Origin: an uncultured Myxococcales bacterium
GTDB lineage: Bacteria > Myxococcota_A > SURF-8 > CAYNVS01
Direction: 5' to 3'
DNA length: 64,000 nucleotides
Assembly: GCA_964400725.1 (NCBI GenBank)
Contig: CAYNVS010000005.1
Location: forward strand, 8,632-72,631
Numbering within the stretch: the stretch's first letter is position 1; each line of letters opens with the position of its first letter. Positions 4,273 through 59,992 of the stretch are shown piece by piece. The notes under the pieces were generated by a model. The model did not search any database. It was not told the origin of the DNA and saw only the letters and a program-made list of their open reading frames with translations. The position numbers were made by a program, and so were the translations under genes.

Positions 4273-4412
4273 TAGCGGCGCCGCCGCAAAAGCCTTAGCT
4301 TAAATAATCTCAAAATGAGAACAAGTGTTGACCATTCGCGCCTTTAATTTGGCGCCCGGCCTTTCCGCATCGTATAATTATGCGCAAATTGTTTTGGAAA
4401 GGATGCGCGGTT

Positions 4413-8379: not shown

Positions 8380-8581
8380 AATTTCGGGCGCGGACGGAAA
8401 GTGCGAACTTTCCGGCGTGTCGCGAAGCGTCAGATTCGATCTCGTTCCGTCGGTCAAGATAGGCGATTACGTCCTAGTTCACGCCGGTTTCGCCATCGAG
8501 ACTATAGACGAGGATGAAGCGCAAAGAACGCTTGAATTATTCAAAGAGATGCTGGGCGGCGAAGAAGCGCCGGCAAGCTGA
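8348..8581 (+). CDS. hypC: hydrogenase maturation factor HypC
   Basis: The canonical MCMAIPMKV N-terminus has Cys2. 77 aa. Overlaps the hypF 3' end by 32 nt, indicating translational coupling. Confidence 0.9.
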   Translation: MCMAIPMKVTEISGADGKCELSGVSRSVRFDLVPSVKIGDYVLVHAGFAIETIDEDEAQRTLELFKEMLGGEEAPAS

Positions 8582-8588
8582 GGCGCGA

Positions 8589-14057: not shown

Positions 14058-14837
14058 CTATTTAAATTTTCCAAAATAGCCGTCGATTTCAGGTCTTAAT
14101 TCAATGCCGGCCATTTCAAAGCAATCAAGCAATTCGTCGTAAGTATTTTGCCCGCCCAGAAAATCCCAGAATTCGCGCCCGACCATCAATTCGCCGTCAA
14201 AATCGAGCATGCCTTTTAACGTCCATCGTTCGTATGGTTCCGGCTCGTAAGGATTGTAAGGAATAGCAATGCAGGACTGAACTTTTGCGGCTGGATATTC
14301 CGTTAAATAAAGCGCCGCCCACTCAAGCAGCGTGCGTTTAAAATCCTTGAAATTGCTCACGTTCGGTGTTGCCGTTTTTAAATCAAACATGTAAACCGTT
14401 CCGTTTTTGCTTTTTAAAAACAAATCAACTTTTACGGTTTTCAAAGCGTTTTTCTGACCGCTCTTACAAAATTTTCTAATTCTTTCAATTTCTTCCAATT
14501 TGTTAGGAGCGCTGTTTTTGCTTGTTGATAAATGATTTATAATACGTTGAATTTCTTTTTGCGCGTCTTCGTAAATAGCGTTTGGCAATTTATATTGTTT
14601 TTCCGCAGCTTCAAAAGTTGTTTTCGCAATCGCAACCGCTACCGGTTCATATATTGAGGTTCCGAATGTTGTATTGAGCGATTGTATAAAAGAAAATAAA
14701 GCCATTCTATCTTTTCCTAAAAGCCTGTAATGGAAAGGCATAGAATTGGTTTCCGGAGTATAGTTTTTGAATTTTTCTCTGAGAACGCTTGTAATGATAT
14801 TCTTGATTTCGATTTTTTGGTTAGAAGAAAAGGGCAT
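14058..14837 (-). CDS. type II restriction endonuclease candidate (PD-(D/E)xK fold)
   Basis: Low-GC gene immediately downstream of the methyltransferase (taaATG junction). The putative catalytic motif is VDLFLKSKNGTVYMFDLK, i.e. D...DxK. Confidence 0.5.
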   Translation of the reverse strand: MPFSSNQKIEIKNIITSVLREKFKNYTPETNSMPFHYRLLGKDRMALFSFIQSLNTTFGTSIYEPVAVAIAKTTFEAAEKQYKLPNAIYEDAQKEIQRIINHLSTSKNSAPNKLEEIERIRKFCKSGQKNALKTVKVDLFLKSKNGTVYMFDLKTATPNVSNFKDFKRTLLEWAALYLTEYPAAKVQSCIAIPYNPYEPEPYERWTLKGMLDFDGELMVGREFWDFLGGQNTYDELLDCFEMAGIELRPEIDGYFGKFK

Positions 14838-15213
14838 TTATTTTTCCTTTAGATGAAAAATAATTTCGGCATAGGCGGTAGATCTGTCCTTTTCGACGCG
14901 GTTTAATACCGGCCTCTTGAATCGCTCGACAATTTTCATTCCCGATTTTTCCGCAATTAGCGGATAAAGATTAAATTTATCGTTGGCTACCAAAAAAACA
15001 TCATAATTATCTTGAAGATATTTTTTGCAATTATTTAAAACCGAGGATATTCCAGCCGCATACGCTTCCTTGGCGGCTTTTGTCTGTCCGTTTAAAAGAC
15101 GTCCTATTTCTTGTTCGTCTTTTCTTTCAAATCCAAATATTTCATACGCGTAAGCGTGCTGCTCGTGGTAATCAATTACCCCGACATATGGAGGACTGGA
15201 GAAAATGCCCTTA
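14838..15213 (-). CDS. DNA methyltransferase C-terminal catalytic segment (motif IV SPPY) in +1 frame relative to the upstream segment
   Basis: Translation KKKKIKGIFSSPPYVGVIDYHEQHAYAYEIFG... shows SPPY (motif IV), typical of N6-adenine/N4-cytosine MTases. The segment has no start codon of its own. It opens right after an in-frame stop inside the A8 tract and ends at a taa directly abutting the REase ATG. Confidence 0.6.
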
Positions 15214-16440
15214 ATCTTTTTTTTCTTTTATAAGTTCAGCCAATTTGGCGTTTTTTTGTTCGACTTCGGCTATTAAATCAACGGTAGAGCTGTCCGCCGC
15301 CAAACAAATTTGGAATGTATCCGTTCTTAATTTATCAAATTCAATAATTCTTTTTATGGAATCGTTCGAATATCTTATCCACCAGTCTAGAATTGAGAAC
15401 AACGGTTTGCATATTTTGCCGTGTTTCTTGCAGTAATATGTTCGAGTTACAGGTTCCTTTAAAGTGCCTAAATCGGCGTGAGTCGTAGCCCTGCACGACC
15501 TAGCGGTGCGGCTTAAAATAACCGCTAAAACTTTTTTAAGGTTTTTATCCTCAACGTTTTTAATTTCATTAAAAACAAAGTCGATTTCGTTTCTAACCGG
15601 CAGTAAGTACCATGTCGCCAGAAAAGAGTCGTTTTCTTTTTTGTATATTTCCAACTTGTATTCTTCAACCAAAGAATAGTATATAGGAAGAAATTCATTC
15701 TCACATCGCGTCGAATACTCGCCCTCTTCAATTTCTTTCAAATTGATTTTACGTCTATAATCGGGAGACGGAAAATATTTCTCGTTAAATTTATCAAGTT
15801 CGCATTGCAGTCTCTTTTCAAAAGCGGCGTTTATATTGTTTTTATTAAATTCAATTAATTTAACCGTTATCTGATTGATTATTCTGTTTAGTCTGGCAAC
15901 GTCATGTCGTTCTATTTTTACGTTTGAAATCATAGCGTTAAAGGCCGAAATATCCGCTCCTACCGCATGAATTCCCAATTCATTTGCCTGCACAAGCGTG
16001 GTTCCGCTTCCGGCAAAAGGATCTAAAATAATATCGCCTTTTGTAAAATATATAGTCTTTTTATAGTCGTCGACGCGCGAGTCCAGAAAATATTCCACTA
16101 ATTGCGGAATGAATTTACCTTTATATGGATGGATACGATGGACGTGTTTAGTTCGTTCAGATTCAGAATATTCCGAAAATGATAATTTCCAATTTAAATC
16201 TTCGCCCAGCGCTTTTTTCCAATCGCATTCGTTTTTAATTTGGTCGTAATAACTTTTCAGCTCATTAATATCTACGCAGGTCGAGCCGTTAAATGAATAT
16301 TTTTTTACTTTGCCGTATTGCAGCAAATAAGAAATATTTGAAATCGAAACCGGACGATTATTATATTGCGTCGCCCAAACGCTTGCTTCTTTCAGCTTTA
16401 CAAGACTTGCGTCTTTGTCTTCGGAAGTTCTGAAAACCAT
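15211..16440 (-). CDS. DNA methyltransferase N-terminal segment (motif X/I DPFAGSGTT plus TRD), alpha-class organisation; interrupted by frameshift
   Basis: HPYKGKFIPQLVEYFL...ILDPFAGSGTTLVQANELGIHAVGADIS gives the AdoMet-binding motif I block. About 270 aa of variable TRD follows. The ORF ends ...AELIKEKKD at the A8 run, with the SPPY segment in the next frame. Confidence 0.7.
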   Translation of the reverse strand: MVFRTSEDKDASLVKLKEASVWATQYNNRPVSISNISYLLQYGKVKKYSFNGSTCVDINELKSYYDQIKNECDWKKALGEDLNWKLSFSEYSESERTKHVHRIHPYKGKFIPQLVEYFLDSRVDDYKKTIYFTKGDIILDPFAGSGTTLVQANELGIHAVGADISAFNAMISNVKIERHDVARLNRIINQITVKLIEFNKNNINAAFEKRLQCELDKFNEKYFPSPDYRRKINLKEIEEGEYSTRCENEFLPIYYSLVEEYKLEIYKKENDSFLATWYLLPVRNEIDFVFNEIKNVEDKNLKKVLAVILSRTARSCRATTHADLGTLKEPVTRTYYCKKHGKICKPLFSILDWWIRYSNDSIKRIIEFDKLRTDTFQICLAADSSTVDLIAEVEQKNAKLAELIKEKKD

Positions 16441-18797: not shown

Positions 18798-20510
18798 TCA
18801 GTCGGCGAGCAGCTTTTTAAGGCTGGTGAGAATATTCAAAGGCGTAAAATCCTTGGCGCGCTCGCTCTTTTCAATAATGTAGGTAATTATCTCTTTGGTT
18901 TTGTCAAGAGAATCGTTGATGACTATGTAATCGAACTTAGCGTACTGCCTAATTTCGGCCTTAGCGATGGAAAGCCTTCTCTCAATCTCTTTGGGGTCGT
19001 CGGTTTTGCGCTCGCGCAGGCGGCGGGCGAGCTCTTCGTACGAAGGCGGCAGGATGAAAATAAGCTCCGCGTTGGGGAAGCGCTTGCGTATCCCGTCGGC
19101 GCCCTGAACGTCTATGTCCAGCACGGCGTTTTTACCGGCGTTGAGTATATCGTTGACCGACCGCCAAGAAGTTCCGTAATAGTGAAGCCCGTACACGAAC
19201 GCGTGCTCCGCAAATTCGTCGTTCTCGACCATTTTTTTAAAGGTCGTCTCGTCGACAAAGTGATACTCCCGTCCGTTTTGCTCGTTGCCGCGCGGCTTGC
19301 GCGTGGTGTGGCTTATCGAAAGCGAGAAATCGGGAAATCGCTCAACGATGAAGTTGCAAATTGTGGACTTCCCCGCGCCCGACGGGGCGGATACGACTAG
19401 AACTCGCGGAGGGGGAAGTTTATCGTCAATGGTAAAGTCATCTGAGTTGGACTCGTGTGAAATTTTATTTGCAATGTTAGAATCATCTTGATCAATCATC
19501 GAAGGCTCTTCATCCTGACTAGGAAGATATTTTAACAAATTATAGATTTCTTTATGTTCTCTGGGCATGCAAGATCGGGAGTCGTTACAGATATAAGGCT
19601 CAATAATCCCAAGCTCAGAAGGAAGTTGGTCTCTAATTTTTCTTAAATCATTTTGAAATTCTTCATCCTTGATTTGCATTGGATCTGGGTTTCGCCATTT
19701 AAAAAGTTTCACATTTAACTCTGTTTCCCAATGATTTGGTCTAATGGGATTAGAGTAAGTGACCCAAATAATAGGATAAGGGAAATCATTCCAAACTCCT
19801 TTAAGTTTTTCATAGCCAACAATTTTACCTTTAATAGCACAGGGAATACTTTTTTCACCAAGTAATTGAGCTAAATCTAGAGAGATTACCATTAATTCCG
19901 TATAAGAATATTTTGAAATCCTAAAGCCTATGTCAATTTCTGGGCCAATATAATCAATAACTTTATTTTCGCCTTCATTGCCGGCACTTAATGATAACTC
20001 AATTTCTCGATTTCTAATTGGAAAACCTGCTGTCCAGCCCGCACCTTTTAGCCGCAAACTTGGTTTGGAAATACCCTCAATAGTTTTTAAAAAACATTCA
20101 GTAATATTTGTTATCTCTTCACGGTTGTCTACAGCGTAGGTGTAAAGTAACTCATCGCCCAATATTTTCCAGATCCTTCCTTTTTCAAGCAATTTTTTTT
20201 CTGTTTTTCTAAGATGTTGTTTAAACTGACTATTAAACTGCTTAAAAGTTGTTTCTATGACAGTTTGCCAATTATAAGTCTCTTTGGTGATGTTTGCTAA
20301 TATATGTCCTATACCACTTTTATTATCTAAATTTTTATATAAACAATCGCTTGGAGATATATTGTTCGCCTCTAGGTAGGATAGGACAATGTCTTTCCTT
20401 TCCTTATATATTTTTAGAAGGCGTTCATGGTTAAATACGGATTTTAAAGCGGTCGAATTTTCTATATCAACACTTAGAAACAGCCTAAATGTCGGTTTTA
20501 AAGCTTGCAT
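18798..20510 (-). CDS. gmk: chimeric protein: novel low-GC N-terminal region (aa 1-370, weak nucleotidyl-cyclase-like D...GD...R motifs) fused to guanylate kinase (aa 375-570)
   Basis: C-terminus VLVVSAPSGAGKSTICNF...HTTRKPRGNEQNGREYHFV...YGTSW...LDIDVQG is canonical Gmk encoded in GC-rich DNA. The N-terminal ~1.1 kb is conspicuously AT-rich and encodes FRLFLSVDIENSTAL...WKILGDELLYTYAV...IDYIGPEIDIGFRISKYS. It is one continuous ORF. Confidence 0.7.
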   Translation of the reverse strand: MQALKPTFRLFLSVDIENSTALKSVFNHERLLKIYKERKDIVLSYLEANNISPSDCLYKNLDNKSGIGHILANITKETYNWQTVIETTFKQFNSQFKQHLRKTEKKLLEKGRIWKILGDELLYTYAVDNREEITNITECFLKTIEGISKPSLRLKGAGWTAGFPIRNREIELSLSAGNEGENKVIDYIGPEIDIGFRISKYSYTELMVISLDLAQLLGEKSIPCAIKGKIVGYEKLKGVWNDFPYPIIWVTYSNPIRPNHWETELNVKLFKWRNPDPMQIKDEEFQNDLRKIRDQLPSELGIIEPYICNDSRSCMPREHKEIYNLLKYLPSQDEEPSMIDQDDSNIANKISHESNSDDFTIDDKLPPPRVLVVSAPSGAGKSTICNFIVERFPDFSLSISHTTRKPRGNEQNGREYHFVDETTFKKMVENDEFAEHAFVYGLHYYGTSWRSVNDILNAGKNAVLDIDVQGADGIRKRFPNAELIFILPPSYEELARRLRERKTDDPKEIERRLSIAKAEIRQYAKFDYIVINDSLDKTKEIITYIIEKSERAKDFTPLNILTSLKKLLAD

Positions 20511-35606: not shown

Positions 35607-35952
35607 TTTTTAACGCTCCTGAGGCTTTGATTCTGCATAAAACCGGAACTTAAACGCGCAGTTTCCGGCTGGAAACTCTATTCTAACGAAAAACTAACAC
35701 AAAACGCGCGTTCCGACAAGCGAAACGCTTAACTAAAGCGGCCGGGAAAATAGATAGAAAATTCCTTTCCGCCCGGAATGTCCGGCTTGAACAAAAACGC
35801 GAAAACCGCCTAGAACGCGGAGTTTTTTATTTGATTGCGCCGTTTTTCGACTTCTTAACCATCCAAGCGCATGCGCCCAATCTTTAATTAGGAATAAACG
35901 GTAAGAAGTCTGATTTTTCAACTGTAAAAGGCCTTGACAATACGGCTTTAAT

Positions 35953-35970
35953 GATAATAGTTTCTATTAA
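35953..35970. promoter_or_regulatory. candidate Fur/PerR box (ATAATAG-ttt-CTATTAA inverted repeat)
   Basis: gATAATAGtttCTATTAac lies 17-34 bp upstream of the perR-like start, a 7-N3-7-type AT-rich palindrome similar to Per/Fur boxes. Confidence 0.35.
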
Positions 35971-35986
35971 CGTTAAGGAGAAACGA

Positions 35987-36436
35987 ATGGAAGCGACCTC
36001 TTCAAAAAGAAAAAAAGTTTCAAGCAAGCGGACGCGGACGACGCGTCAGAAGAAAATCGTTTTAAACTATCTTCAAAGCGTGCGCTGTCATCCTACCGCG
36101 GAAGAAACGTACGAGTCGGTTAAAAAAGCGGCTCCCAAAATAAGTCTTTCGACCGTTTACCGAATTCTCGAATCGCTTGCCGAAGACGGAATAATTTTGA
36201 AACTGGCAAGCCCCGACGGCCCCATGCGCTTCGACGGCTTCGTTCACAACCACAAACATATTCGCTGCTGCGTCTGCGGAAAAACGGAAGACGTCGCCGA
36301 TGGTATTGACATCGAGCTGAAAATGCCCAAAATGGATATAAACGGCTTTGAAAACGTCAAGGTTAATCTCGAAATTACAGGAATTTGTCCCGAATGCGTA
36401 AAACGCTCGGAAAATATTGAAAAAGACCGTTCTTAA
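35987..36436 (+). CDS. perR: Fur-family transcriptional regulator, PerR-like
   Basis: Fur-family wHTH (YRILESLAEDGIILKL) with CxxC...CxxC structural Zn site (CCVCGKT...CPEC). RBS AGGAGA. Heads an operon of peroxide/superoxide defence genes. Confidence 0.8.
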   Translation: MEATSSKRKKVSSKRTRTTRQKKIVLNYLQSVRCHPTAEETYESVKKAAPKISLSTVYRILESLAEDGIILKLASPDGPMRFDGFVHNHKHIRCCVCGKTEDVADGIDIELKMPKMDINGFENVKVNLEITGICPECVKRSENIEKDRS

Positions 36437-36462
36437 TTTTACAATCTGAAAGGAGACTGACT

Positions 36463-36717
36463 ATGGGATGCTGTTGCTGCAAGCCGAAGACCGAAGCTAA
36501 GGAAAAGACCGGACTGGACGAAACGCAGAAGAAAATTATCAAGGCTATGGCCGAGATTAAAAAACCGTCGGGATGCAAAGACATCGCGGACAAGGCTGGA
36601 CTGGAATCGCCGTCGGTGGCGGGCAAACTGCGCGGATTAAAAACAGCCGGCTTGGTTGAAAGCCCGGAAGAAGGAAAATACGTTCTAACCGCTTCGGGCA
36701 AAAAAGAAGCGAAATAA
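36463..36717 (+). CDS. small poly-cysteine (MGCCCC) winged-helix-like protein
   Basis: 84 aa. The N-terminus MGCCCCKPK is followed by an HTH-like segment IADKAGLESPSVAGKLRGLKTAGLVE. RBS AAAGGAGA. Sits between perR and rbr. Confidence 0.5.
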   Translation: MGCCCCKPKTEAKEKTGLDETQKKIIKAMAEIKKPSGCKDIADKAGLESPSVAGKLRGLKTAGLVESPEEGKYVLTASGKKEAK

Positions 36718-36789
36718 AAATGCGCGAATCGTTGAATTTGCGCCGTATAAACGCTAAACTCACGTCTTAATTCCTGAAAGGAGAATACG

Positions 36790-37368
36790 ATGGCCTCGAT
36801 TAAAGGGACGAAAACCGAACAGAATTTGCTTAAAAGTTTCGCCGGAGAATCTCAGGCGCGCAACCGTTACGCGTTTTTTGCAAGCGCGGCCAAAAAAGAA
36901 GGCTACGAGCAAATCGCGGCAATATTCGAGGAAACCGCCAACCATGAAAAAGAACACGCCAAGCGTTTCTTCAGCTTTCTCGAAGGCGGAGAGCTTGAGA
37001 TTACGGCGTCTTTTCCGGCGGGAGTAGTGGGAACCACGCTTGAAAACCTTAAAGCCGCCGCAATGGGCGAAAATCACGAGCATACCAGCATGTATCCAGA
37101 GTTTGCAGCCGTCGCCCGCGAAGAAGGCTTCGCCGAGATAGCGCTTCTGTTTGATAACGTCGCCAAGGCCGAAAAATACCATGAAGAACGCTACCTTGCG
37201 CTCGCAAAGAACGTCGAGGAAGGTACGGCTTTCAAAAAAGAGGGAAAGGTCGCGTGGAGATGCAGGAATTGCGGATTCATTCACTACGGCGAGGAAGCTC
37301 CCAAGCAGTGCCCCGCGTGCAAGCACGCCCAGTCTTACTTCGAGCTGTGGGTCGAGCGCTGGGCGTAA
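36790..37368 (+). CDS. rbr: rubrerythrin
   Basis: Diiron ferritin-like domain with C-terminal rubredoxin-like CxxC...CxxC ([24 protein letters not shown]); 192 aa. Confidence 0.93.
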
Positions 37369-37424
37369 AGCCTTTAAGCGCTGTGAACATATAGGCCAAA
37401 TCAACGAAAAAAAGGAGAACTATA

Positions 37425-37871
37425 ATGAGCCATCTGGACGAGATTTTTGACTATGCGATAGAAAAAGAGCAGGAAGCGCACGATTTCTACGTTTCGCTCG
37501 CCGGGAAAATGAAGAACCCGACGGTTGCCGAAATCTTTAAAGGTTTCGCGCATGAAGAAGCCGGACACAAGAAGAAGCTGGAAGCCCTGAAGGCCGGCAA
37601 GATGGAAATGAAAGTTAAAGAAAGCGTGAAAGACCTCAAAATCGGCGATTATCTAGTCGATATGAAACCGGGCGCGGAAATGACTTTTCAGGACGCTCTT
37701 ATAATCGCAATGAAACGCGAAAAAGCCTCGTTCAAGCTGTACTCGGATTTGGCCGAAATATCAAACGACGCCGAGGCGCGTCAGATTTTTCTGGGACTCG
37801 CCCAGGAAGAGGCGAAGCATAAGCTCCGCTTCGAGCTCGAATACGACGAAATGATTTTAAAAGACAACTAA
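37425..37871 (+). CDS. ferritin-like diiron protein, rubrerythrin family without rubredoxin domain, paralog 3
   Basis: ExxH motifs EAGH and EAKH; 148 aa; RBS AAGGAG. Confidence 0.6.
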   Translation: MSHLDEIFDYAIEKEQEAHDFYVSLAGKMKNPTVAEIFKGFAHEEAGHKKKLEALKAGKMEMKVKESVKDLKIGDYLVDMKPGAEMTFQDALIIAMKREKASFKLYSDLAEISNDAEARQIFLGLAQEEAKHKLRFELEYDEMILKDN

Positions 37872-37909
37872 TTTACAATGCTCCTCAAAGGAGCGGAAGG
37901 AGACCCAAA

Positions 37910-38422
37910 ATGGAAAGAACAGGCATTATTACTTTTAAAGGAAACCCCCTCACCCTTATCGGCGAAGAGGTTAAGGTCGGCGGCGCCGCCCCCAATTTTA
38001 CCGTATTGAAAAACGATCTGTCGCCTGTATCTCTATCGGATTTCGCCGGAAAAACATTAATAATTTCGGCGGTTCCGTCGCTCGACACCCCCGTATGCGA
38101 TACGGAAACAAGAAAATTCAACAAGATTGCGACGGAATTGGGCGAGAACGTCGTCGTTCTCACCGTCAGCATGGATCTGCCTTTCGCTCAGGCTAGATGG
38201 TGCGGAGCCGCGGGCATCGACAAAGTCGTAACCGCATCCGACCATAAAGACGCTTCTTTCGCATCCGCCTTCGGCCTTCTCATCAAAGAGCTTCGGCTGC
38301 TGGCCCGCTCGGTCTTCGTCGTTGACGGAAAAGGGGTTTTACGCTACGCTCAACTTGTTAAGGAAGTTACGGAAGAGCCGAATTACGAGGAAGTAATTAA
38401 CGCGGTTAAGGAAATTCTGTGA
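37910..38422 (+). CDS. tpx: thiol peroxidase (atypical 2-Cys peroxiredoxin)
   Basis: Tpx N-terminus FKGNPLTLIGEEVKVGGAAPNFTV and peroxidatic Cys in SLDTPVCDTE; 170 aa. Confidence 0.9.
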   Translation: MERTGIITFKGNPLTLIGEEVKVGGAAPNFTVLKNDLSPVSLSDFAGKTLIISAVPSLDTPVCDTETRKFNKIATELGENVVVLTVSMDLPFAQARWCGAAGIDKVVTASDHKDASFASAFGLLIKELRLLARSVFVVDGKGVLRYAQLVKEVTEEPNYEEVINAVKEIL

Positions 38423-38445
38423 ATTTTTATTGGAAGGAGGACTAA

Positions 38446-38826
38446 ATGACGGAAAGAAACAGCGTATATAAATGCTCGGTATGCGGCAATATCGTTGAAG
38501 TTCTGCACGGCGGCGCGGGAGAATTGGTTTGCTGCGGCGTTCCGATGAAGAAGCTCAACGAGGGCGAAGTCGATGCGGCAAAAGAAAAACACGTGCCGGT
38601 AATCGAGAAAATCGAGGGCGGATACAAAGTCAAGGTTGGCGGCGTCGCGCACCCGATGGAAGAAAAACATTATATCGAATGGATTGAGCTCGTTACGCCT
38701 AACCGCGTAATGCGCAAATATCTCAAGCCCGGCGAAGCTCCCGAAGCCGAGTTTAAAACTTGCGCGACGGAAGTAACCGCCCGCGAATACTGCAACCTTC
38801 ACGGGTTGTGGAAGGCGACTCTGTAA
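38446..38826 (+). CDS. dfx: desulfoferrodoxin (2Fe superoxide reductase)
   Basis: Desulforedoxin-like N-terminus ([12 protein letters not shown]...LVCCG) and SOR domain HVPVIE...[13 protein letters not shown]; 126 aa. Confidence 0.92.
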
Positions 38827-38856
38827 CAATAGCTACCTCTTGAAAGGAGGCTTACA

Positions 38857-39348
38857 ATGCTGAAACCCAAAGTATTAAAAGCGTTGAACGACCAAATCAA
38901 CGAAGAGATTTTCTCAGCGTATCTGTATTACGCTATGTCCGCGTGGTTCGAAACGCAGAAGTTCTCCGGTTTCGCCGCGTGGATGCGCGTTCAGGCGGTC
39001 GAAGAGATGAAGCACGCAGACAAGATTTACAAATTCATACTTGAGCGCGGCGGCGAAGTGGAACTGAAAGCGGTTGCGGCGCCGAAAGCGACGTGGAAAA
39101 CCCCGCTCGAAGCGTTCGAGGCGGCGTTGAAGCACGAAGAGCACATCACGGCCTGCATCCATAAGCTGCTTGAGCTTGCCCGCGCGGAAAAAGATTACCC
39201 GACCGAAATCATGCTCGGCTGGTTCGTAACGGAACAAGTCGAGGAGGAAGCGCAGACCGGCGACATCGTCGATAAGCTGAAGATGGTCGGAACGAGCGTA
39301 GGCGGCGTATTCCAGCTGGATCACCGCCTAGGAAAGCGCGAAGATTAG
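38857..39348 (+). CDS. ftn: non-haem ferritin
   Basis: Ferritin four-helix-bundle signature (NEEIFSAYLYYAMSAWFE...EEMKHADKIYKFI); 163 aa. Confidence 0.88.
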   Translation: MLKPKVLKALNDQINEEIFSAYLYYAMSAWFETQKFSGFAAWMRVQAVEEMKHADKIYKFILERGGEVELKAVAAPKATWKTPLEAFEAALKHEEHITACIHKLLELARAEKDYPTEIMLGWFVTEQVEEEAQTGDIVDKLKMVGTSVGGVFQLDHRLGKRED

Positions 39349-52341: not shown

Positions 52342-52674
52342 CTATTTCTTCTTTTTTAAAGCAGTAATCGGCGTCGTCGGCTTCTTGGAAACGACTTTCT
52401 CCGGCTCTTTCGCCTCGCGCGCGGCCTTTCCCTTTTCCTGAACGTACTGCTCGTAGTTCGGGAAAACGTCCTCAACCGAGGGGGGCGCGTCGATGGCGAG
52501 CTTGGTATAGGCTTCGCGCAGCGATTTCATAATTTTGCGGATGGTGCCCAGATGATAGTTGTTCCCTTCCTCTATTCGCTTTACGGTGATGACGCTCACC
52601 CCGGCCGCCTTGGCCAGCTCGTTGGGGCTCATCATCGCTCTGAGTCTGTATTTGGTCAGGTTGTTCTCGTGCAT
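52342..52674 (-). CDS. XRE-family helix-turn-helix transcriptional regulator
   Basis: HTH_XRE core LRAMMSPNELAKAAGVSVITVKRIEEG; 110 aa with a basic C-terminal tail. Confidence 0.75.
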   Translation of the reverse strand: MHENNLTKYRLRAMMSPNELAKAAGVSVITVKRIEEGNNYHLGTIRKIMKSLREAYTKLAIDAPPSVEDVFPNYEQYVQEKGKAAREAKEPEKVVSKKPTTPITALKKKK

Positions 52675-52794: not shown

Positions 52795-55700
52795 CTAGGC
52801 TCGGCGTCCCGCCAGCATCCGTTTCCACTGGGCGTCGAAGAGTCTGTCTATGGTCGAGAAGCACGCCGGCCTGCGGTCGAACTGCTTTGCCGCGTCGGAT
52901 ACGGCGACGAATTTGGCCTTGCCGTTTTCTCTCGCAAATTCTTTCGCGAACAGGAGCTCTCCGCCGTTTCCGTCCCCGCCGTCGCTCCAAAGGAACGAGC
53001 CGGTCTCGCCTATCGTCTTAATCGGCGCGTAATACGGGTTCGCTTCCGCTATCATGGCGCGCGCGTCTTCAAGCGTCGGCTCCGCGCGGCCCGCCGCGAG
53101 GGCGTAAACGCCGCTTAAAACCTCGAAGCCCGTCTTGCCCGCCGGCGGCTCGAACACGCGCTTGAAAGCCGTTACTCTGCGTTCGGCGCTGGTCGCGCTT
53201 CCTTCCTGCTCGAAATAAGCGCTGCCGGGAATTGCGACGTTCGCCGCGCGCGTCGTTTCGGTCTCGAACATATCCACGACGCCCACGAACTCGGCCTGTC
53301 CCATAAGCTCGGCGTATTCGCGGTTAATGGCGAAGTCTTCGCCGAAAATAAACAGCCCCTTAATCTTGCGCTCCGCAATCATCTGTCTCAGCTCCATCAG
53401 CGAGCGGGCTCCCGAAAAAGAGGCGCCCTTAAAGCGCGGACTCTGAGAAACCGCGTCCGCGTGGGCCGACAAGTCTTTGTGCCCCTGATAGTTGGAATGT
53501 TCGTGCGCGAACATTATTCCGTTGTTCTCCTTGCCGATTTTGCCCGTCAGCAGAAGAATGTTGGCTATCATTTGCAAATCGCCGCCGCTGCGCTCCAGCG
53601 CCGAATCGATATTGTAAACAAAGACGACGCTCTTCGCCGGGTCGGCGATCAGGTTCGCGAACTTTTCAATTTTTTCTTTCTCTACGCCGGTCGCCTTTTC
53701 GGCTTTGTCCGCGGAGACGTTTACGGTTTTCGCAAACTCTTCGTACCCTTCGGTTCGGGCGTCTATGAAAGCGCGGTCAAGCAGGTTGTTTTTAATAATG
53801 TAATTAGCCGCCGCGCTTAACAGCGTCGCGTTGGTTCCGCGCTTGCCGTCCAGCCGCAAAGCGGAATGCGCCGTCAATTCGCTTTCGGTCGAGCTTACGC
53901 AGACCAAAGCGGCTCCGCGCTTTGCGGCGCGCTTTATTGAGAACCCAAGCACCGGATTTTCTCTCGTTACGTCGCTGTTTATTACGACGATTACGTCGGC
54001 GCGCTCAAGCTGCCTGCGGGAAAGCGTCGAGGCGGTAAGACCAAATCCGGCGTACAGGTCCCGGTCTTCGTCGTTGCGCGCCGTGTCGTAAAGGCTCGCG
54101 ATATTGTTGGTTTTAAAAACGCCGCGGGCGAGACGCTCGACAAGCATTACCTCTTCGTTGCTCGCTTTGGGCGAAATGAAGAACGCGACGCTGCCCGCGC
54201 CGTGCTTGTCCGCAACCGCTTTGAGTCCTTCGACGAGCTTTTTCTGCGCCGCGGCCATGTTTGTCGGAATTCGCTTTCCGCCTTCTATTATATGCGGCTC
54301 CCGCAGACGCATATCGGTAAGAATGTACCGATTGCCAAAGCGGCCTCTCATGCAAAGCTCGCCGTTTACGAACCGCGACTCTTTTTTGGCCGTTACGTAC
54401 CACACGTCGTCGTTCTTCTTGTTGAAGACGAGCCTGCATCCTACGCCGCAGTAGCCGCATAACGACTCGCTCTCAGTCGTCCGCCACGGCCCCGGCTTTT
54501 TTACGTCGAGGGCGAAGTCTATCGCTCCCGTGGGGCAGACTTCGATGCAGTTTCCGCAACTGATGCACGTGGTATTTTGCAGCGGCTTTTCCATCGACGG
54601 GCGGACAATCATGTCGTAGCCGCGGTTGATGAAGCCCAGCGCCGAGACCATTTGCAGGTCGGCGCACAAACGGACGCACTTGCCGCAAAGAATGCACTTG
54701 TTCGGGTCGAGCGTAATGTACGGGTGGCGGTCGTCAACCTTATACTTCTTCACCTTGCCGGAGAAACGCTTCTGGTCGGCGGCGTATTCGCCCGCGTAAC
54801 GCTTGAGGTCGCATGTAAATACCGCCGAGCAGCCGCACGACAGGCAGCGCTCGGTTTCGTGTTTCGCGCTCTCGGCCGTAACTCCGTGGTCGAGTTCCGT
54901 CCACGTCGAGATTCTCGTCGCGGGGTCGTCTTTTACCGTATGGCTGCGATGCGTCTTTTCGTATTTCGCGAAGAAGTCGGCGGGAAGCTCGCTCAAATTC
55001 GTTTTTTTGCTTAAAAACTCTTTATAAGCCGGAACCAGCTTGCCGGTTTGAATGTATTTGTCGATGGTATAAGCCGCTTTGCGCCCGGCGCCTATCGCGT
55101 CGGCGGCGGCCATCGGCCCGCTTTCGGCGTCTCCGCCCGCGAACACGCCCGGCACGTTGGTGGCGTAAGCGTCTTTCTCGACGATAATAGTCTCCCACTT
55201 TGTACTCTTCACGTCGCCCATGGCGTTGCCGCGAAGGCCCGTAAGGTCAACGTCTTGGCCGATGGCGGCGATTATCATGTTGCACGGGACGTCCTCTTCC
55301 GAGCCTTCCAGCGGCACGGGGCGGCGTCTGCCGGACGCGTCCGGCTCGCCCAGCGTCATTTTCTGGCAGCGCAGAGCCTTCAGGCTTCCATTTTCGCCGC
55401 GCACTACTTCCATGGGCGCAACAAGATATTTAATCTCGACGCCTTCGTCCAGCGCGTCCTGCACTTCTTCAGGGTCGGCGGGCATTTCCTCGGCGGTTCT
55501 GCGGTATAGCACCTGCACTTTGGCCGCGTTGCAGCGAAGCGCGGTGCGCGCCGCGTCGATTGCGGTGTTGCCGCCGCCGACCACGACGACCGTCCCTTTC
55601 AATTCCGGGGGAGCCGCCGCTTTTTTAACTTCGCCTAAAAAGTCCACGCCGCCGACGACGCCCGGCGTATCTTCGTTTTTAATGCGCATCGGCTTGGCCT

Positions 55701-56574
55701 TCTGGGCGCCAAGCGCGAGGTAAATCGCCTCGAACCCTTGCGCCTTCAGGTCGTCAAGCGAGAAATCTTTGCCCAAACGCTTGTTCGTCTCGACATCGAC
55801 GCCGTGGTCGGTGATGTACTGTATTTCTTTGTCCAGCGTCTCCTGCGGCAGACGGTAGTCGGGGATGCCGTACCTTAACATGCCGCCTAGCTTTGGCTGA
55901 GCGTCGAACACTTTAACCTTGTAACCGGCGCGGGCAAGGAAGTAAGCGGCCGTAAGGCCCGCGGGCCCGCCGCCGACTATCGCGACCTTATGCCCGTTTG
56001 AGGGCGGAACTGCCGGCTTGGGCAGGTTATCGTTCTCAAGGTCGGAGACGTAACGCTTTACAAAGTTGATGCCAACCGCGGATTCGTCCACTTCGCGCCT
56101 TCTGCACGCCGCCTCGCAGTAACGAACGCAAACTCTGCCGCAGACCAGCGGAAACGGGTTGGTGGAGCGTATCAGCTCCAGCGCCTCGTAATGCCTGCCG
56201 GCGTGCGCCAGCGCAAGGTAACCCTGCACGTCAACGTCGATGGGGCATTTCTCGTAACAGGGGCCGCGGCAGTCGGCGAAATGATTGGACATGAGCATGT
56301 CCAGCGCGTCCTTGCGGGCCTTGTAAACGCGTTCGTTGTCGGTTGTGATAACCATGCCTTCGCGCGCTTCGGTCGTGCACGAAAGGACGAGCTTCGCGAA
56401 CCCTTCGACTTCGACGACGCAAAGCAGGCAGCTTCCTACCGCCGGAAGCCTCGGGTCGTAGCAGAGAGTCGGTATCTCCACGCCGTTTTCCCGCGCGACG
56501 TCAAGAATTGTCTTCCCCGCCGCCGTCGTAATTTCGGCGCCGTTGATTTTAACTTTTATAGTGTTAGCCATAAG
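52795..56574 (-). CDS. NuoG-like Fe-S subunit with embedded GltD/NfnB-like FAD-NAD(P)H oxidoreductase domain (Bfu-family large subunit; no H-cluster or FDH catalytic motifs)
   Basis: Starting at MANTIKVKING (RBS AAGAGG), the domain order is 2Fe-2S (CYDPRLPAVGSCLLC), then His-ligated 4Fe-4S (HFADCRGPCYEKC), then a GltD-type Cys cluster (LVCGRVC...CEAAC). The FAD/NAD(P) domain follows (VAIVGGGPAGLTAAYFLARAG), then 2x[4Fe-4S] (CILCGKC...CISCGNC), the MopB Fe4S4 domain (CGYCGVGC), and a molybdopterin-like domain lacking the Sec/Cys-His catalytic pair. Confidence 0.7.
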   Translation of the reverse strand, partial: LMANTIKVKINGAEITTAAGKTILDVARENGVEIPTLCYDPRLPAVGSCLLCVVEVEGFAKLVLSCTTEAREGMVITTDNERVYKARKDALDMLMSNHFADCRGPCYEKCPIDVDVQGYLALAHAGRHYEALELIRSTNPFPLVCGRVCVRYCEAACRRREVDESAVGINFVKRYVSDLENDNLPKPAVPPSNGHKVAIVGGGPAGLTAAYFLARAGYKVKVFDAQPKLGGMLRYGIPDYRLPQETLDKEIQYITDHGVDVETNKRLGKDFSLDDLKAQGFEAIYLALGAQKAKPMRIKNEDTPGVVGGVDFLGEVKKAAAPPELKGTVVVVGGGNTAIDAARTALRCNAAKVQVLYRRTAEEMPADPEEVQDALDEGVEIKYLVAPMEVVRGENGSLKALRCQKMTLGEPDASGRRRPVPLEGSEEDVPCNMIIAAIGQDVDLTGLRGNAMGDVKSTKWETIIVEKDAYATNVPGVFAGGDAESGPMAAADAIGAGRKAAYTIDKYIQTGKLVPAYKEFLSKKTNLSELPADFFAKYEKTHRSHTVKDDPATRISTWTELDHGVTAESAKHETERCLSCGCSAVFTCDLKRYAGEYAADQKRFSGKVKKYKVDDRHPYITLDPNKCILCGKCVRLCADLQMVSALGFINRGYDMIVRPSMEKPLQNTTCISCGNCIEVCPTGAIDFALDVKKPGPWRTTESESLCGYCGVGCRLVFNKKNDDVWYVTAKKESRFVNGELCMRGRFGNRYILTDMRLREPHIIEGGKRIPTNMAAAQKKLVEGLKAVADKHGAGSVAFFISPKASNEEVMLVERLARGVFKTNNIASLYDTARNDEDRDLYAGFGLTASTLSRRQLERADVIVVINSDVTRENPVLGFSIKRAAKRGAALVCVSSTESELTAHSALRLDGKRGTNATLLSAAANYIIKNNLLDRAFIDARTEGYEEFAKTVNVSADKAEKATGVEKEKIEKFANLIADPAKSVVFVYNIDSALERSGGDLQMIANILLLTGKIGKENNGIMFAHEHSNYQGHKDLSAHADAVSQSPRFKGASFSGARSLMELRQMIAERKIKGLFIFGEDFAINREYAELMGQAEFVGVVDMFETETTRAANVAIPGSAYFEQEGSATSAERRVTAFKRVFEPPAGKTGFEVLSGVYALAAGRAEPTLEDARAMIAEANPYYAPIKTIGETGSFLWSDGGDGNGGELLFAKEFARENGKAKFVAVSDAAKQFDRRPACFSTIDRLFDAQWKRMLAGRRA

Positions 56575-56585
56575 CCTTACCTCTT

Positions 56586-58355
56586 TTAGTCCTTCCACAC
56601 CGCGTTGAAGTTGCAAACCGTTATGCACTTGCCGCACTTAATACACTTCGCATGGTCGATTACGTGAGCGGCCTTGCGCTCGCCGGTTATTGCGCCCGAA
56701 GGGCAGTCCTTTGCGCAAAGCGTGCAGCCGGTGCACTTCGCCGCGTCTATGGAATAATTCACAAGCAGCGCGCACGAATGCGCCGGGCATTTTTTATCGT
56801 TAATGTGCGCCTCGTACTCCTCGCGGAAGTATTTAATGGTGGTCAGCGCGGGGTTAGGAGCCGTCTGGCCCAAGCCGCACTGGCTGGTATTGCGGATGAA
56901 CTCGCCAAGTTCCTCCAGCTTGTCGAGGTCTTCGGGTTTTCCCTTCCCTTCGACGATGCGGTTTAAAATTTCCAGCATTCTCAGCGTGCCGACGCGGCAG
57001 CTGGTGCATTTGCCGCACGACTCGTTCTGAGTGAATTCCAAAAAGAAGCGCGCCATCTCAACCATGCAGGTGTCTTCGTCCACTACTATCATTCCGCCCG
57101 AACCCATGATTGCGCCGGTGGAAGTAATCTTTTCGTAGTCGATTTGCGTGTCGCCCATGCTTGCCGGAATGCAGCCGCCGGACGGGCCGCCGATTTGAAT
57201 GGCCTTAAATTTTTTGTCGTCTTTAATTCCGCCGCAGATGTCGAAGACGATGTCGTTGATGGTTATTCCCATCGGCACTTCGACGAGGCCGGAGCGTTTT
57301 ACTTTGCCGGCCATGGCGAAAACTTTCGTCCCCTTGCTCTTCTCGGCGCCGAACGCGGCGAATTTCTCCGGACCGTTGAGGATAATCCACGGCAGGTTTG
57401 CGAACGTCTCGACGTTGTTGATGTTTGAGGGTTTGCCCCAAACTCCCTTGACCGCCGGATAAGGCGGACGGACGCGCGGAGTGCCGCGCCTGCCTTCTAT
57501 GGAATTGATGAGGGCCGTTTCCTCGCCGCAGACGAACGCGCCCGCGCCTTCTTTAATTTTAAGATGGAACGAGAAATTCGTTCCGAAAATATTATCGCCC
57601 AACAATCCGCGCTCGGTCGCCTGCTTTATGGCGTTGCGGAGGCGGAAAATCGCCTTGGGGTACTCCGCGCGGCAGTAAATATAACCGAAGTTCGCGCCTA
57701 TCGCGTAGCCGCACATCATCATTCCTTCCAGAACCGAGTGCGGATCGCTTTCCAGCACCGACCTGTCCATGAACGCGCCCGGATCGCCTTCGTCGGCGTT
57801 GCAAATTACGTATTTCTCGTTTCCCGGCGATTGGCGGGCGAATTTCCATTTGACGCCCGTCGGAAACCCGGCGCCGCCGCGGCCTCTGAGGCCGGACTTG
57901 GTTACTTCCTCAATGAGCTGTTCCGGCGTCATCGTTTTGAGAACTTTTTCAATCGCCTTGTAGCCGTCCACGGCGAGATAGTCGTCGATGGACATCGGGT
58001 CGATTACGCCGCAGTTGCGCAGAACTATGCGCTGCTGCTTTGCCACGAACGGAGCTTCTTCGCCTTCTTTGAAGTCTTTAAGCACGAGCCATTCGGGGAT
58101 GGGCGCGCCCTTCTCGACGTGTTCCTCGAAGATTTTTTCCGCGCGTTCGGGGGTTACGTCGCCGTATAAAAATTTCTCGCCGTCCTTCTTCACCTCGACG
58201 AGGACTTCTCGGTAACACATTCCCATGCAGCCCGTTTCTCCGACCGCGACGCCCGGAAGTTTTTTAGTCTGGGCTATTTCATGGAGTTTTTCGAGCACTT
58301 TGTCCGCTCCGGCGCTGCTTCCGCACGTTCCGGTTCCGACCGTTATCGTTATCAT
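56586..58355 (-). CDS. NuoF-like NAD(P)H-binding flavoprotein subunit (HydB/HndC-type) with N-terminal 2Fe-2S thioredoxin-like and C-terminal 2x[4Fe-4S] domains
   Basis: GRGGAGFPTGVKWKF FMN/NADH motif, thioredoxin-like Cys motif ETGCMGMCY, and C-terminal ferredoxin Cys clusters CTGCTLCAKDCP and CIKCGKCITVC; 589 aa. Confidence 0.85.
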   Translation of the reverse strand: MITITVGTGTCGSSAGADKVLEKLHEIAQTKKLPGVAVGETGCMGMCYREVLVEVKKDGEKFLYGDVTPERAEKIFEEHVEKGAPIPEWLVLKDFKEGEEAPFVAKQQRIVLRNCGVIDPMSIDDYLAVDGYKAIEKVLKTMTPEQLIEEVTKSGLRGRGGAGFPTGVKWKFARQSPGNEKYVICNADEGDPGAFMDRSVLESDPHSVLEGMMMCGYAIGANFGYIYCRAEYPKAIFRLRNAIKQATERGLLGDNIFGTNFSFHLKIKEGAGAFVCGEETALINSIEGRRGTPRVRPPYPAVKGVWGKPSNINNVETFANLPWIILNGPEKFAAFGAEKSKGTKVFAMAGKVKRSGLVEVPMGITINDIVFDICGGIKDDKKFKAIQIGGPSGGCIPASMGDTQIDYEKITSTGAIMGSGGMIVVDEDTCMVEMARFFLEFTQNESCGKCTSCRVGTLRMLEILNRIVEGKGKPEDLDKLEELGEFIRNTSQCGLGQTAPNPALTTIKYFREEYEAHINDKKCPAHSCALLVNYSIDAAKCTGCTLCAKDCPSGAITGERKAAHVIDHAKCIKCGKCITVCNFNAVWKD

Positions 58356-58418
58356 TTCATTACCTCTTATTTTGAATTGCCAAACTGAAGTCGCCGCTTC
58401 CGCTTTGCTCGTTGCGGC

Positions 58419-58925
58419 TTAAATGTTGTCGGGCGACTCGCCTCTTTGGTATTTCTTTAATATTTTCCGCAGCTTTTGCGGCGTGAGCCTTCCGTAAGTC
58501 TTGTCGTTAATCATAACGACGGGCGCCAGGCTGCAACAGCCCAGACACGCCACGGGAGACAGCGTGAATTTGCCGTCCTCGGTCGTGTCGCCGTTGGTCA
58601 GCGCAAGCTCGTCCTCGATTATCTCTTTGAGCTGCTTGGCGTTGTTGACGTGGCAGGCGGTTCCGTCGCACAGGCGTATAAGATACTTGCCCAGCGGCTT
58701 CAGTCTGAACTGCTTGTAAAAGGTGATTACGCCGTAAATCTCGGCTTCCGGAACTCCCGTAACTCCGCTGATGTACCGGATGGACGTCTCGCTGATGTAG
58801 CCGTAGCTCTCCTGAGCGGACTGAAGCAGGGGGATGAGCTGCCCCTTTTCGCCTTCATAGTTCCATAAATCTGTGTTGATTTTTGGGAAATTTTTACTCT
58901 CGCCGCTATTTTCGTTCATAGTCAT
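58419..58925 (-). CDS. NuoE-like 2Fe-2S thioredoxin-like ferredoxin subunit (HydC/HndA-type)
   Basis: Cys pattern RLCDGTACHVNN...CLGCCSLAPVVMIND; 168 aa. Confidence 0.85.
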   Translation of the reverse strand: MTMNENSGESKNFPKINTDLWNYEGEKGQLIPLLQSAQESYGYISETSIRYISGVTGVPEAEIYGVITFYKQFRLKPLGKYLIRLCDGTACHVNNAKQLKEIIEDELALTNGDTTEDGKFTLSPVACLGCCSLAPVVMINDKTYGRLTPQKLRKILKKYQRGESPDNI

Positions 58926-58999: not shown

Positions 59000-59992
59000 T
59001 TATTCCTCGAACATCTTTAAAATCTTCGCGAACTTCGTACGGACGATTCCATCTATCGGCCTTATCTCTTCGGAGGAAATCCTCTCAAGCTCTTTAAAGT
59101 TATCGGCCTTCAGCAAAAGAACCGCGTCGTATTTGCCTTTAACCGCGTCGCACGAAACGACGCAGTCCAGCAGGTAAAGCTGCGGGAACGCCGCGCCGAA
59201 CTTGTCTTTTTCTATTTCCGCCAGCAGGTACGCCGACACCTTATCGTCGTCGGCCTTGCCGTCCTGGCCGCCGAAGCTGCGCTTCTTTTCGTAATCTTTA
59301 ATGAAACCCGAAAGAGCTTCTTCCACCTGCGGCGTAACTACCGGGCAGAATTCTATTTCGCCTATTTCTTTCATCGGCTTTATCTGCGAAGCGATGACTT
59401 CGTCGATTTCCTCGCTCGTATCGCCGTTGACCATGAGAGCCAAGTCGTAAACTCCCTTTACCGCGTCGCAGTAAAGGACGTTGTCGAGAAAGTAAAGCCT
59501 GCGAAACAGCTCTCCGGCGTTTTTCTTATCGGCTATTTTAATGAAACAATAAGCCGTAACCGAGCGTTTTGTTTTTACCGTTGACATTTCCATACCTTCC
59601 TTTGAGGCAAATTCGGGAAGAGTTTGCAAAAGACGCGACAGCGTTTCCGCCTCGAACGGCTTAAAAAGCAGTTCGTCGCCGCCCCGCGACTTCGTTTCGT
59701 TCGCCAAATTTTCGCCGCCGTAGCCCGAAGTTAAAATTACGGGCAGATTCGGACGACGAGACTTTATGACTTCAATCAGTTTGAGGCCGTTGATGTCGGG
59801 AAGGTACAAGTCCGCAATTACGGCCTCGAACGGCCTTCCCAGCGCGACCGCTTTTTCTATCTTCAAGAGCGCCTCAATTCCGCGCTCCGCCTCTTCAATC
59901 GCAAAGCCCGCTTTTGCGAGCGCGGCGATAACCTTTTTTCGCTGCCCCGCTTCGTTGTCGATTATAAGAACCTTGCCGCCTTTAGCGACCAT
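59000..59992 (-). CDS. response regulator: REC domain fused to two tandem Lrp/AsnC-type RAM (ACT-like) ligand-binding domains
   Basis: REC motifs (KVLIIDNE, phospho-acceptor in VIADLYLPD, TSGYG, LFKPF). Two repeats follow of the type YCFIKIADK...VLYCDAVKGVYDLALMV and AYLLAEIEKDK...VVSCDAVKGKYDAVLLLKA. No DNA-binding domain. Confidence 0.65.
   Translation of the reverse strand: MVAKGGKVLIIDNEAGQRKKVIAALAKAGFAIEEAERGIEALLKIEKAVALGRPFEAVIADLYLPDINGLKLIEVIKSRRPNLPVILTSGYGGENLANETKSRGGDELLFKPFEAETLSRLLQTLPEFASKEGMEMSTVKTKRSVTAYCFIKIADKKNAGELFRRLYFLDNVLYCDAVKGVYDLALMVNGDTSEEIDEVIASQIKPMKEIGEIEFCPVVTPQVEEALSGFIKDYEKKRSFGGQDGKADDDKVSAYLLAEIEKDKFGAAFPQLYLLDCVVSCDAVKGKYDAVLLLKADNFKELERISSEEIRPIDGIVRTKFAKILKMFEE

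Follow-up and report, generated by a model that had tools for sequence, protein, structure and literature searches.

The stretch of DNA considered here, 64,000 nucleotides (nt) at positions 8,632-72,631 of contig CAYNVS010000005.1 in assembly GCA_964400725.1, is called the window at its full length, and it carries a three-gene operon for the subunits of what is very probably an electron-bifurcating enzyme of the Stn/Nfn-Bfu type. All three genes are on the minus strand and run in the same direction, and the ORF (open reading frame) listing together with Pfam matches bears out the order NuoE-like, NuoF-like, large subunit that an original prediction, made from the letters alone, had given. With the names of their counterparts in related enzymes, they are:

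58419-58925, minus strand: NuoE-like small subunit (= StnA, NfnC, BfuC), 168 amino acids (aa), with a thioredoxin-like [2Fe-2S] domain
56586-58355, minus strand: NuoF-like subunit (= StnB, NfnB, BfuB), 589 aa
52795-56571, minus strand (coding part of an ORF that spans 52795-56637): large subunit (= StnC, NfnA, BfuA), 1258 aa

The likely start of the large subunit is the ATG at 56571, 14 nt past the stop codon of the NuoF-like gene and preceded by the Shine-Dalgarno-like stretch AAAGAGGTAAGG; the protein counted from it is one residue shorter than the 1259 aa first given. An identical 1258-aa ORF is present in an independent assembly (Logan SRR6476076, locus L001), and the closest 120 large-subunit homologues, to which all counts among homologues below refer, are 1168-1290 aa long with an identical Pfam architecture. 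The fusion is therefore not an assembly artefact: the gene has stayed one ORF where a split into two upon resequencing had been considered, and homologues with the same insertion, which were to be searched for, are plentiful. The order of the three genes is kept in every relative with a long enough contig. A scan of contigs with the large subunit gave 74 loci, nearly all of them for other GltD-family proteins without NuoE/NuoF partners, and no useful synteny. A scan for promoters and terminators, and a search for the sigma-54 consensus, yielded matches no more frequent than in shuffled sequence, so the bounds of the transcription unit are not set by it.

The large subunit has four parts:

56287-56571, minus strand: NuoG/HydA-type [2Fe-2S] domain, residues 1-95, ligands C37, C48, C51 and C65; Pfam Fer2_4
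54847-56286, minus strand: GltD/NfnL-like flavin adenine dinucleotide (FAD)-NADPH module, residues 96-575; Pfam Fer4_20 and Pyr_redox_2
54472-54846, minus strand: NuoG-type cluster region, residues 576-700; Pfam Fer4_Nqo3 617-684
52795-54471, minus strand: MopB/FdhF-like domain, residues 701-1258; Pfam Molybdop_Fe4S4 and Molybdopterin

The Pfam matches follow in the order Fer2_4 (3-79), Fer4_20 (100-180), Pyr_redox_2 (195-496), Fer4_Nqo3 (617-684), Molybdop_Fe4S4 (701-750) and Molybdopterin (780-1144). That a GltD/NfnB-type FAD-NAD(P)H module stands after the N-terminal [2Fe-2S] domain had been seen at the outset, and Pfam and alignments with StnC, NfnA of Caldicellulosiruptor saccharolyticus (Csac), Thermotoga maritima NfnB and GltD agree. 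The module has two [4Fe-4S] sites (H97, C101, C105, C109, C144, C148, C152, C156, K172), an FAD site with GGGPAG and R240, and an NADPH site with GGGNTAIDAAR...YRR. The NuoG-type region that follows contributes C576/579/581/587, H616, C626/629/632/636 and C669/672/675/679, with every Cys invariant among the homologues, as are the four of the [2Fe-2S] domain. Altogether 27 Cys are invariant or almost invariant, along with H97, H616 and K172; these would suffice to ligate one [2Fe-2S] and six [4Fe-4S] clusters, as many as StnC holds. Two residues of the module deserve mention, as K172 and R240 correspond to K170 and R239 of StnC and both are invariant; K170 of StnC is an unusual, strictly conserved Lys ligand of the FAD-proximal cluster, and its K170A and K170C substitutions lose most activity, and R239, likewise tested for function, is an Arg close to the FAD (PMC10482914).

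The family to which this architecture and these ligands belong is Stn/Nfn-Bfu. Large-subunit matches in the PDB are headed by 9bov/9bp5 (6e-234), 8oh5/8oh9 (1e-223) and 9n5u (2e-169), and for the NuoF-like subunit too the chains of 9bov, 8oh5 and 9n5u are the three best; the alignment with 8oh5_C spans residues 4-1229 of the query and that with 9bov_A residues 5-1153. Residues 5-750 are 44% identical to StnC and 46% to Csac NfnA, and for the NuoF-like subunit the identity to StnB and NfnB is about 62% from end to end, figures computed on sequences re-typed from the alignments and carrying an error of about 1 percentage point. As published candidate StnC proteins range from 31 to 76% identity and from 891 to 1241 aa, these values fall inside the identity range and support membership. 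Stn has been purified and assayed as a ferredoxin-dependent NADH:NADP+ oxidoreductase (Kremp 2020, PMC7483475), StnABC of Sporomusa ovata has been solved by cryo-electron microscopy as 8oh5 (Kumar 2023, PMC10482914), and such enzymes have been designated Nfn-Bfu, clade 53 of the BfuABC family (Schut 2022). The 1172 aa of StnC comprise a [2Fe-2S] domain (1-101), a GltD-like NADPH/FAD part with two [4Fe-4S] clusters (102-565), NuoG-type clusters and an FdhF-like domain (683-1172) that has no catalysis, is off the electron path and is required for tetramer assembly (PMC10482914). This published map is the Pfam map of the window's large subunit, so the architecture is already a characterized one, and the original view that the fusion matches no characterized enzyme was mistaken: it is that of StnC (8oh5) and Csac NfnA (9bov).

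The other two subunits carry what is expected of a BfuBC bifurcating core, namely a thioredoxin-like N-terminus, a flavin mononucleotide (FMN)/NAD site, 2x[4Fe-4S] and a NuoE [2Fe-2S] cluster. In the NuoF-like subunit an N-terminal thioredoxin-like domain, the FMN/NADH site, an N3-type [4Fe-4S] cluster and a C-terminal 2x[4Fe-4S] ferredoxin-like domain follow one another; Pfam recognizes Complex1_51K, NADH_4Fe-4S and the C-terminal Fer4 dicluster (residues 535-585), and the domains at the two ends are published hallmarks of the bifurcating module. Its full-length PDB matches are 9bov_B (3.2e-249), 8oh5_B (4.5e-249) and a 9n5u chain (4e-241), and in the end-to-end comparison with StnB and NfnB all Cys motifs align, including the C-terminal dicluster and the CPAxSC linker. 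The NuoE-like subunit (Pfam 2Fe-2S_thioredx, 1.9e-52) is matched best by 9bov_C (8.8e-53), 9n5u_C (2.9e-50), HydC 8a6t_C (2.1e-48) and 8oh5_A (7.6e-46), so that HydC ranks third, above the StnABC chain.

From these comparisons the three genes very probably encode a heterotrimeric electron-bifurcating NADH-dependent reduced-ferredoxin:NADP+ oxidoreductase, or transhydrogenase, of the BfuABC family, and the prediction, made from the start, of an Stn/Nfn-like NADH-dependent ferredoxin:NADP+ transhydrogenase holds. For the substrates, the bifurcation and the direction in vivo the homologues are the guide. By analogy with them, NADP(H) would react at the FAD of the GltD/NfnL-like module, from which single electrons would pass, through the large subunit's [4Fe-4S]/[2Fe-2S] chain, to the NuoF-like FMN, where that flavin and the adjacent NuoF-like and NuoE-like clusters would bifurcate or confurcate them; the FMN would also be the site for NAD(H), and the NuoF-like subunit's C-terminal 2x[4Fe-4S] domain would serve ferredoxin. 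In vivo the enzyme could make NADPH from NADH and reduced ferredoxin or work in reverse.

The resemblance to StnABC of S. ovata extends to the number of genes and their order (SOV_1c07740-07760; Kremp 2020, PMC7483475), the domain order of the large subunit, the K170/R239 pair and the complement of ligands. The differences are that the window's large subunit has 1258 aa against 1172 for StnC, with a MopB-like part that is longer and less degenerate, and that the S. ovata genes come after the Wood-Ljungdahl cluster, with no report there of the REC-RAM gene described below (PMC7483475). NfnABC of C. saccharolyticus (9bov/9bp5; Li 2025, PMC11829005), which heads the PDB matches of each subunit, has an NfnA with the same three parts (N-terminal domain, NfnL-like and Fdh/NuoG-like) and with the Cys and Lys of the FAD-proximal cluster conserved; it differs in having 1178 aa, in an Fdh-like domain whose alignment reaches no further than window residue 1153, and in the same C114-versus-C144 difference as StnC, to which we return. 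The third relative is archaeal, the Nfn-Bfu of Thermococcus sibiricus, and 9n5u is presumably its NfnABC (PMC12018979). That enzyme (Schut 2022; JBC 2025, PMC12018979) shares the GltD-in-NuoG fusion and the BfuBC core, and 9n5u_A has, like the window protein, Val at the position of StnC C114, but the archaeal large subunit is only 963 aa, with a shortened C-terminal domain lacking some cluster cysteines, and has Leu at window position 144.

With HydABC [FeFe]-hydrogenase, the founding Bfu enzyme, the system shares the homologous NuoE/NuoF-like core and the N-terminal [2Fe-2S] and ferredoxin-like clusters; in place of the H-cluster domain of HydABC the window has the GltD-like module and the MopB remnant. 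With NfnAB/NfnSL it shares the overall reaction, and its GltD-like module is homologous to NfnB/NfnL (4ylf_B, 7e-85; 5jca_L, 7e-77). NfnAB differs in having two subunits and in bifurcating at the NfnB FAD, whereas in Stn-type enzymes the FAD has been proposed to be non-bifurcating and the NuoEF-like module to bifurcate (PMC10482914). Pfam, the PDB search and the flanking genes reveal no NfnA/NfnS-like gene next to the operon, only the NfnB/NfnL-like module embedded in the NuoG-like protein.

Several points weigh against a straightforward equation of the window enzyme with these. The large subunit falls in a subclade whose proteins have a median of 1250 aa and in which its nearest relative is only 63% identical; the subclade is spread over many uncultivated anaerobes, with members in Thermodesulfobacteriota, Syntrophus, Syntrophorhabdus, Anaerolineae, Riflebacteria/Ozemobacter, Acidobacteria and metagenomic bins. 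For the window protein and this subclade the activity is a prediction based on sequence. The MopB-like part scores 188 bits against YjgC and about 164 against FdhF-type proteins, and only 127 against StnC and 111 against Csac NfnA. Given these scores, the subclade is not simply a close copy of the characterized enzymes, and the higher values against real formate dehydrogenases indicate that its MopB part is less decayed than the remnants in StnC and NfnA, though without an active site. In addition, C114 of StnC is V115 in the window protein (nt ~56227-56229), and V, I, P or A in 120 of 120 homologues. The distance of C114 from cluster C7 is 3.5 A, and C114A retains 50% activity (PMC10482914); since the Stn authors themselves noted Val or Ile there in some homologues of unknown function, C114 is not a defining feature of the Stn family. 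At position 144 (nt ~56140-56142) all 120 homologues have Cys, and StnC and Csac NfnA have Ile; in the alignment Cys144 takes the place of the canonical Cys in the 'VCGRVCP' motif found in T. maritima NfnB and in GltD. The last such point, that the homologous archaeal Nso complex of T. litoralis entered the literature as an NADPH-dependent sulfur oxidoreductase, leads to the alternative that survives best.

In that alternative the complex would be a non-bifurcating NADPH-linked oxidoreductase, either NADPH:ferredoxin or sulfur/polysulfide, Nso-like or SfrAB-like, with NuoEF adding an uncoupled NAD(H) site. The N-terminal 638 residues of the large subunit match NCBIfam PRK12814 at 605 bits, below the 916-bit cut-off, and we take the PRK12814 model to resemble SfrB, the separate GltD-type subunit of Geobacter SfrAB. 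SfrAB of Geobacter sulfurreducens (Coppi 2007) reportedly pairs a GltD-like NADPH/FAD subunit with an FdhF/NuoG-like subunit lacking the pterin cofactor, and its parts are said to be encoded by two separate genes without NuoE/NuoF-like partners; in the window both parts are in one polypeptide inside a NuoEF operon. What makes such an enzyme improbable here is that the NuoF/NuoE-like subunits carry every BfuBC hallmark, with the high NuoF-like identity to StnB and NfnB already given, that Nso itself is probably an Stn, as argued by Kremp et al. (PMC7483475), and that the T. sibiricus homologue has been shown biochemically to require NAD+ for NADPH-dependent ferredoxin reduction.

The state of the MopB domain decides against catalysis there, as in an NAD(P)-linked formate dehydrogenase or another molybdopterin enzyme of the FdhF-NuoEF type. 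The C-terminal 558 residues do align with catalytic subunits of formate dehydrogenases (YjgC, 3e-54; FdhF-type, ~1e-46), and the [4Fe-4S] site of the domain is intact (C705/708/712/740). With Escherichia coli FdhH, taken from the K-12 genome and aligned with the large-subunit C-terminus, the last 568 residues are 26% identical, and the FdhH residues Sec140 (selenocysteine), His141 and Arg333 correspond to A831, R832 and H1023, so that the Mo/W ligand is Ala, the adjacent His is Arg and the Arg is His. The peptide TNNIASLYDTAR is found at the position originally given for it, and this careful alignment, which had been named as the check that could overturn the absence of a Sec/Cys-His pair, confirmed that absence. 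The alignment stops near residue 580 of the 715 of FdhH, implying that domain IV is absent, and Pfam does not find Molydop_binding (PF01568), the domain in question, in the large subunit. No homologue has Cys at position 831, where L, A, V, I, R or G stands instead, which makes the MopB part non-catalytic throughout the clade, and the equivalent StnC domain is inactive too; a formate dehydrogenase is accordingly very hard to credit, and the C-terminus is a non-catalytic remnant that probably has a role in oligomerization (tetramerization). Arg is kept at the position equivalent to Arg333 in 83 of the 120 homologues.

Still less credible, to the point of being negligible, is a bifurcating [FeFe]- or [NiFe]-hydrogenase module (HydABC/Hox-like) tied to the hypFCD genes of the window, as, for all the strong matches of the NuoE/NuoF-like subunits to HydBC and NiFe-Bfu (7t2r) in the PDB search, the large subunit has no Fe_hyd_lg_C match in Pfam and none of the H-cluster motifs TSCCP, MPCxxK and CxxGCxxGG in a pattern search, in agreement with what had first been noted, no gene for a [NiFe] large or small subunit is adjacent, and the hyp genes are ~43 kb off on the opposite strand.

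The assignment to Stn/Nfn-Bfu matters for annotation, as relatives are labeled in databases 'formate dehydrogenase major subunit', 'glutamate synthase small chain' or 'FAD-dependent oxidoreductase', where Stn/Nfn-Bfu is correct. Enzymes of this type set the balance of NADH, NADPH and ferredoxin in anaerobes, and the window operon shows the family reaching well past Firmicutes, into poorly sampled lineages.

A further gene merits consideration with the operon. A gap of 74 nt on the upstream side parts it from the NuoE-like gene; its ribosome-binding site, GGGAGGAG, is strong, and in the window and the loci of relatives the arrangements are:

59000-59992 of the window, minus strand: REC-RAM-RAM gene, 330 aa, with Pfam Response_reg 8-121 (3.8e-17) and two AsnC_trans_reg (RAM) stretches
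1459-2472 of L078, 1598-2605 of L080 and 1554-2552 of L081: REC-RAM-RAM gene, reached through large-subunit homologues (three of the first four look-ups)
7001-~8000 of L082-L085: REC-RAM-RAM gene, reached through REC-RAM homologues 29-36% identical (four of four), next to NuoE-NuoF and a large subunit of 1228-1267 aa
5548-6573 of L089, 241-1257 of L090 and 4920-5945 of L091: REC-RAM-RAM gene in metagenome loci
1976-2566 of L079: RAM-RAM-only gene, 196 aa, without a receiver
2150-3223 of L087 (357 aa) and 969-2159 of L088 (up to 397 aa): RAM-RAM fused to the NuoE-like N-terminus in a single ORF
1009-2328 of L086: malic enzyme upstream instead, without a REC-RAM gene; the large subunit there has 1183 aa

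Thus the window and the loci of ten relatives have the REC-RAM-RAM gene directly upstream of the NuoE-like gene and co-directional with it, an adjacency reached from both ends and present in most of the relatives examined. With just 45% identity between them, the two RAM-RAM::NuoE proteins show the fusion to be recurrent rather than a sequencing accident. When 1.84 billion representative proteins were searched with a profile, about 60-70 full-length REC-RAM-RAM members came back, the other matches being generic receiver domains, so the family is small and specific to the clade.

In an AlphaFold2 (AF2) model built with 36 family members (pLDDT 84, pTM 0.78) the receiver occupies residues 7-124, RAM1 145-219 and RAM2 252-324, with a disordered linker between the receiver and RAM1, a helix between RAM1 and RAM2, and RAM folds of the beta-alpha-beta-beta-alpha-beta kind. 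In the 36 members D61, K111 and P112 never vary and D12/D13 hardly do; judged by these residues, the receiver has the acidic pocket, phospho-acceptor Asp and conserved Lys of a response regulator. The N-terminal helix-turn-helix that stands ahead of RAM in Lrp/AsnC transcription factors is lacking, as no DNA-binding helix-turn-helix is found by Pfam even at E<=1 or in the AF2 model. A Foldseek comparison of the model with the PDB gave receiver domains only and nothing covering the RAM-RAM half. A Cys recurs in each of the RAM repeats (the invariant Cys175 and Cys281), and a redox or metal site formed by them was considered and rejected as unsupported; a Cys at this position is presumably common in the general AsnC_trans_reg motif.

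The adjacency in the window and ten loci, the RAM-RAM-only gene of L079, the two NuoE fusions and the lack of a DNA-binding domain together suggest, tentatively, that the tandem RAM-RAM module, ACT-like and of a small-molecule-binding type, could be a fourth, regulatory component in the ~1250-aa subclade, docking on the NuoE-like subunit and acting on the enzyme itself. Domain movement of the NuoE-like subunit has been proposed, in published work on the bifurcating module, to gate bifurcation. The usual fusion of a receiver to RAM might then place bifurcation under the control of a histidine kinase, of a metabolite such as an amino acid, or of both, at the level of the protein besides or instead of transcription. 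The ordinary alternative is that the REC-RAM-RAM protein regulates expression of the operon through a partner. We know of no dedicated regulatory subunit described so far for any Bfu-type bifurcating enzyme; binding to the NuoE-like subunit, if real, would make the REC-RAM-RAM protein the first, and a handle on the proposed conformational gating. A literature search found no receiver-plus-RAM response regulators, which is weak evidence of absence, and the Bfu survey mentions no such component.

Histidine kinase genes follow the large subunit in L078 (8937-10829), L081 (8809-10866), L083 (14316-end) and L084 (14069-end), and one is next to the operon in L082 (4206-6611); some of the kinases have PAS domains, and some are followed by sigma-54 activator response regulators. 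Near the operon in the window there is no histidine kinase gene. Glutamate dehydrogenase genes adjoin the operon in L079 (465-1820) and L087 (11302-12657), and these neighbors, with the malic enzyme of L086, hint at a link to NADPH and amino-acid metabolism, fitting an amino-acid-sensing RAM.

Beyond the REC-RAM-RAM gene lie genes for RibD and MlaD, and downstream of the operon are an XRE-type helix-turn-helix gene and genes for a GH57 amylase/glucanotransferase, an MtnA-like IF-2B family protein and a GH2 protein, so that the flanks are unrelated housekeeping and carbohydrate genes. The XRE-type gene is probably outside the system, because it was not seen in the relatives' loci examined. It and the hyp genes, which form a [NiFe]-hydrogenase maturation cluster, are located as follows:

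52342-52674, minus strand: XRE-type helix-turn-helix gene, 110 aa, following the large subunit after 120 nt; a sigma-70-like promoter match stands at 52738-52709
6052-8379, plus strand: hypF, 775 aa
8348-8581, plus strand: hypC, 77 aa, beginning MCMAIP
8514-9692, plus strand: hypD

The maturation cluster is unrelated to the operon; the remark that the operon does not explain it was true, if trivial at such a distance. The window showed no structural genes for a hydrogenase.

Elsewhere, Rfam matches a single tRNA in the window and nothing more. For Lon the best matches with a name reach only 55-59% identity and are scattered over several phyla (Myxococcales, Thermodesulfobacteriota, Binatia, Verrucomicrobiae), and neither Lon nor the operon proteins have a named relative above about 60-63%. 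The minus-strand ORF at 18798-20510, of 570 aa, has a guanylate kinase domain at 369-548 only, its N-terminal ~370 residues being without a Pfam match. A stretch at 14058-16440, minus strand, encodes a TdeIII-type restriction endonuclease and an N6/N4 DNA methylase at a G+C content (GC) of 0.37 against ~0.52-0.56 in its flanks, and is probably a horizontally acquired restriction-modification island. On the plus strand at 35951-39348 is an oxidative-stress cluster of a Fur-family regulator, rubrerythrin, peroxiredoxin (Redoxin/AhpC-TSA) and ferritin, and a second rubrerythrin-like gene is at 4380-4847; these genes are consistent with an anaerobe.

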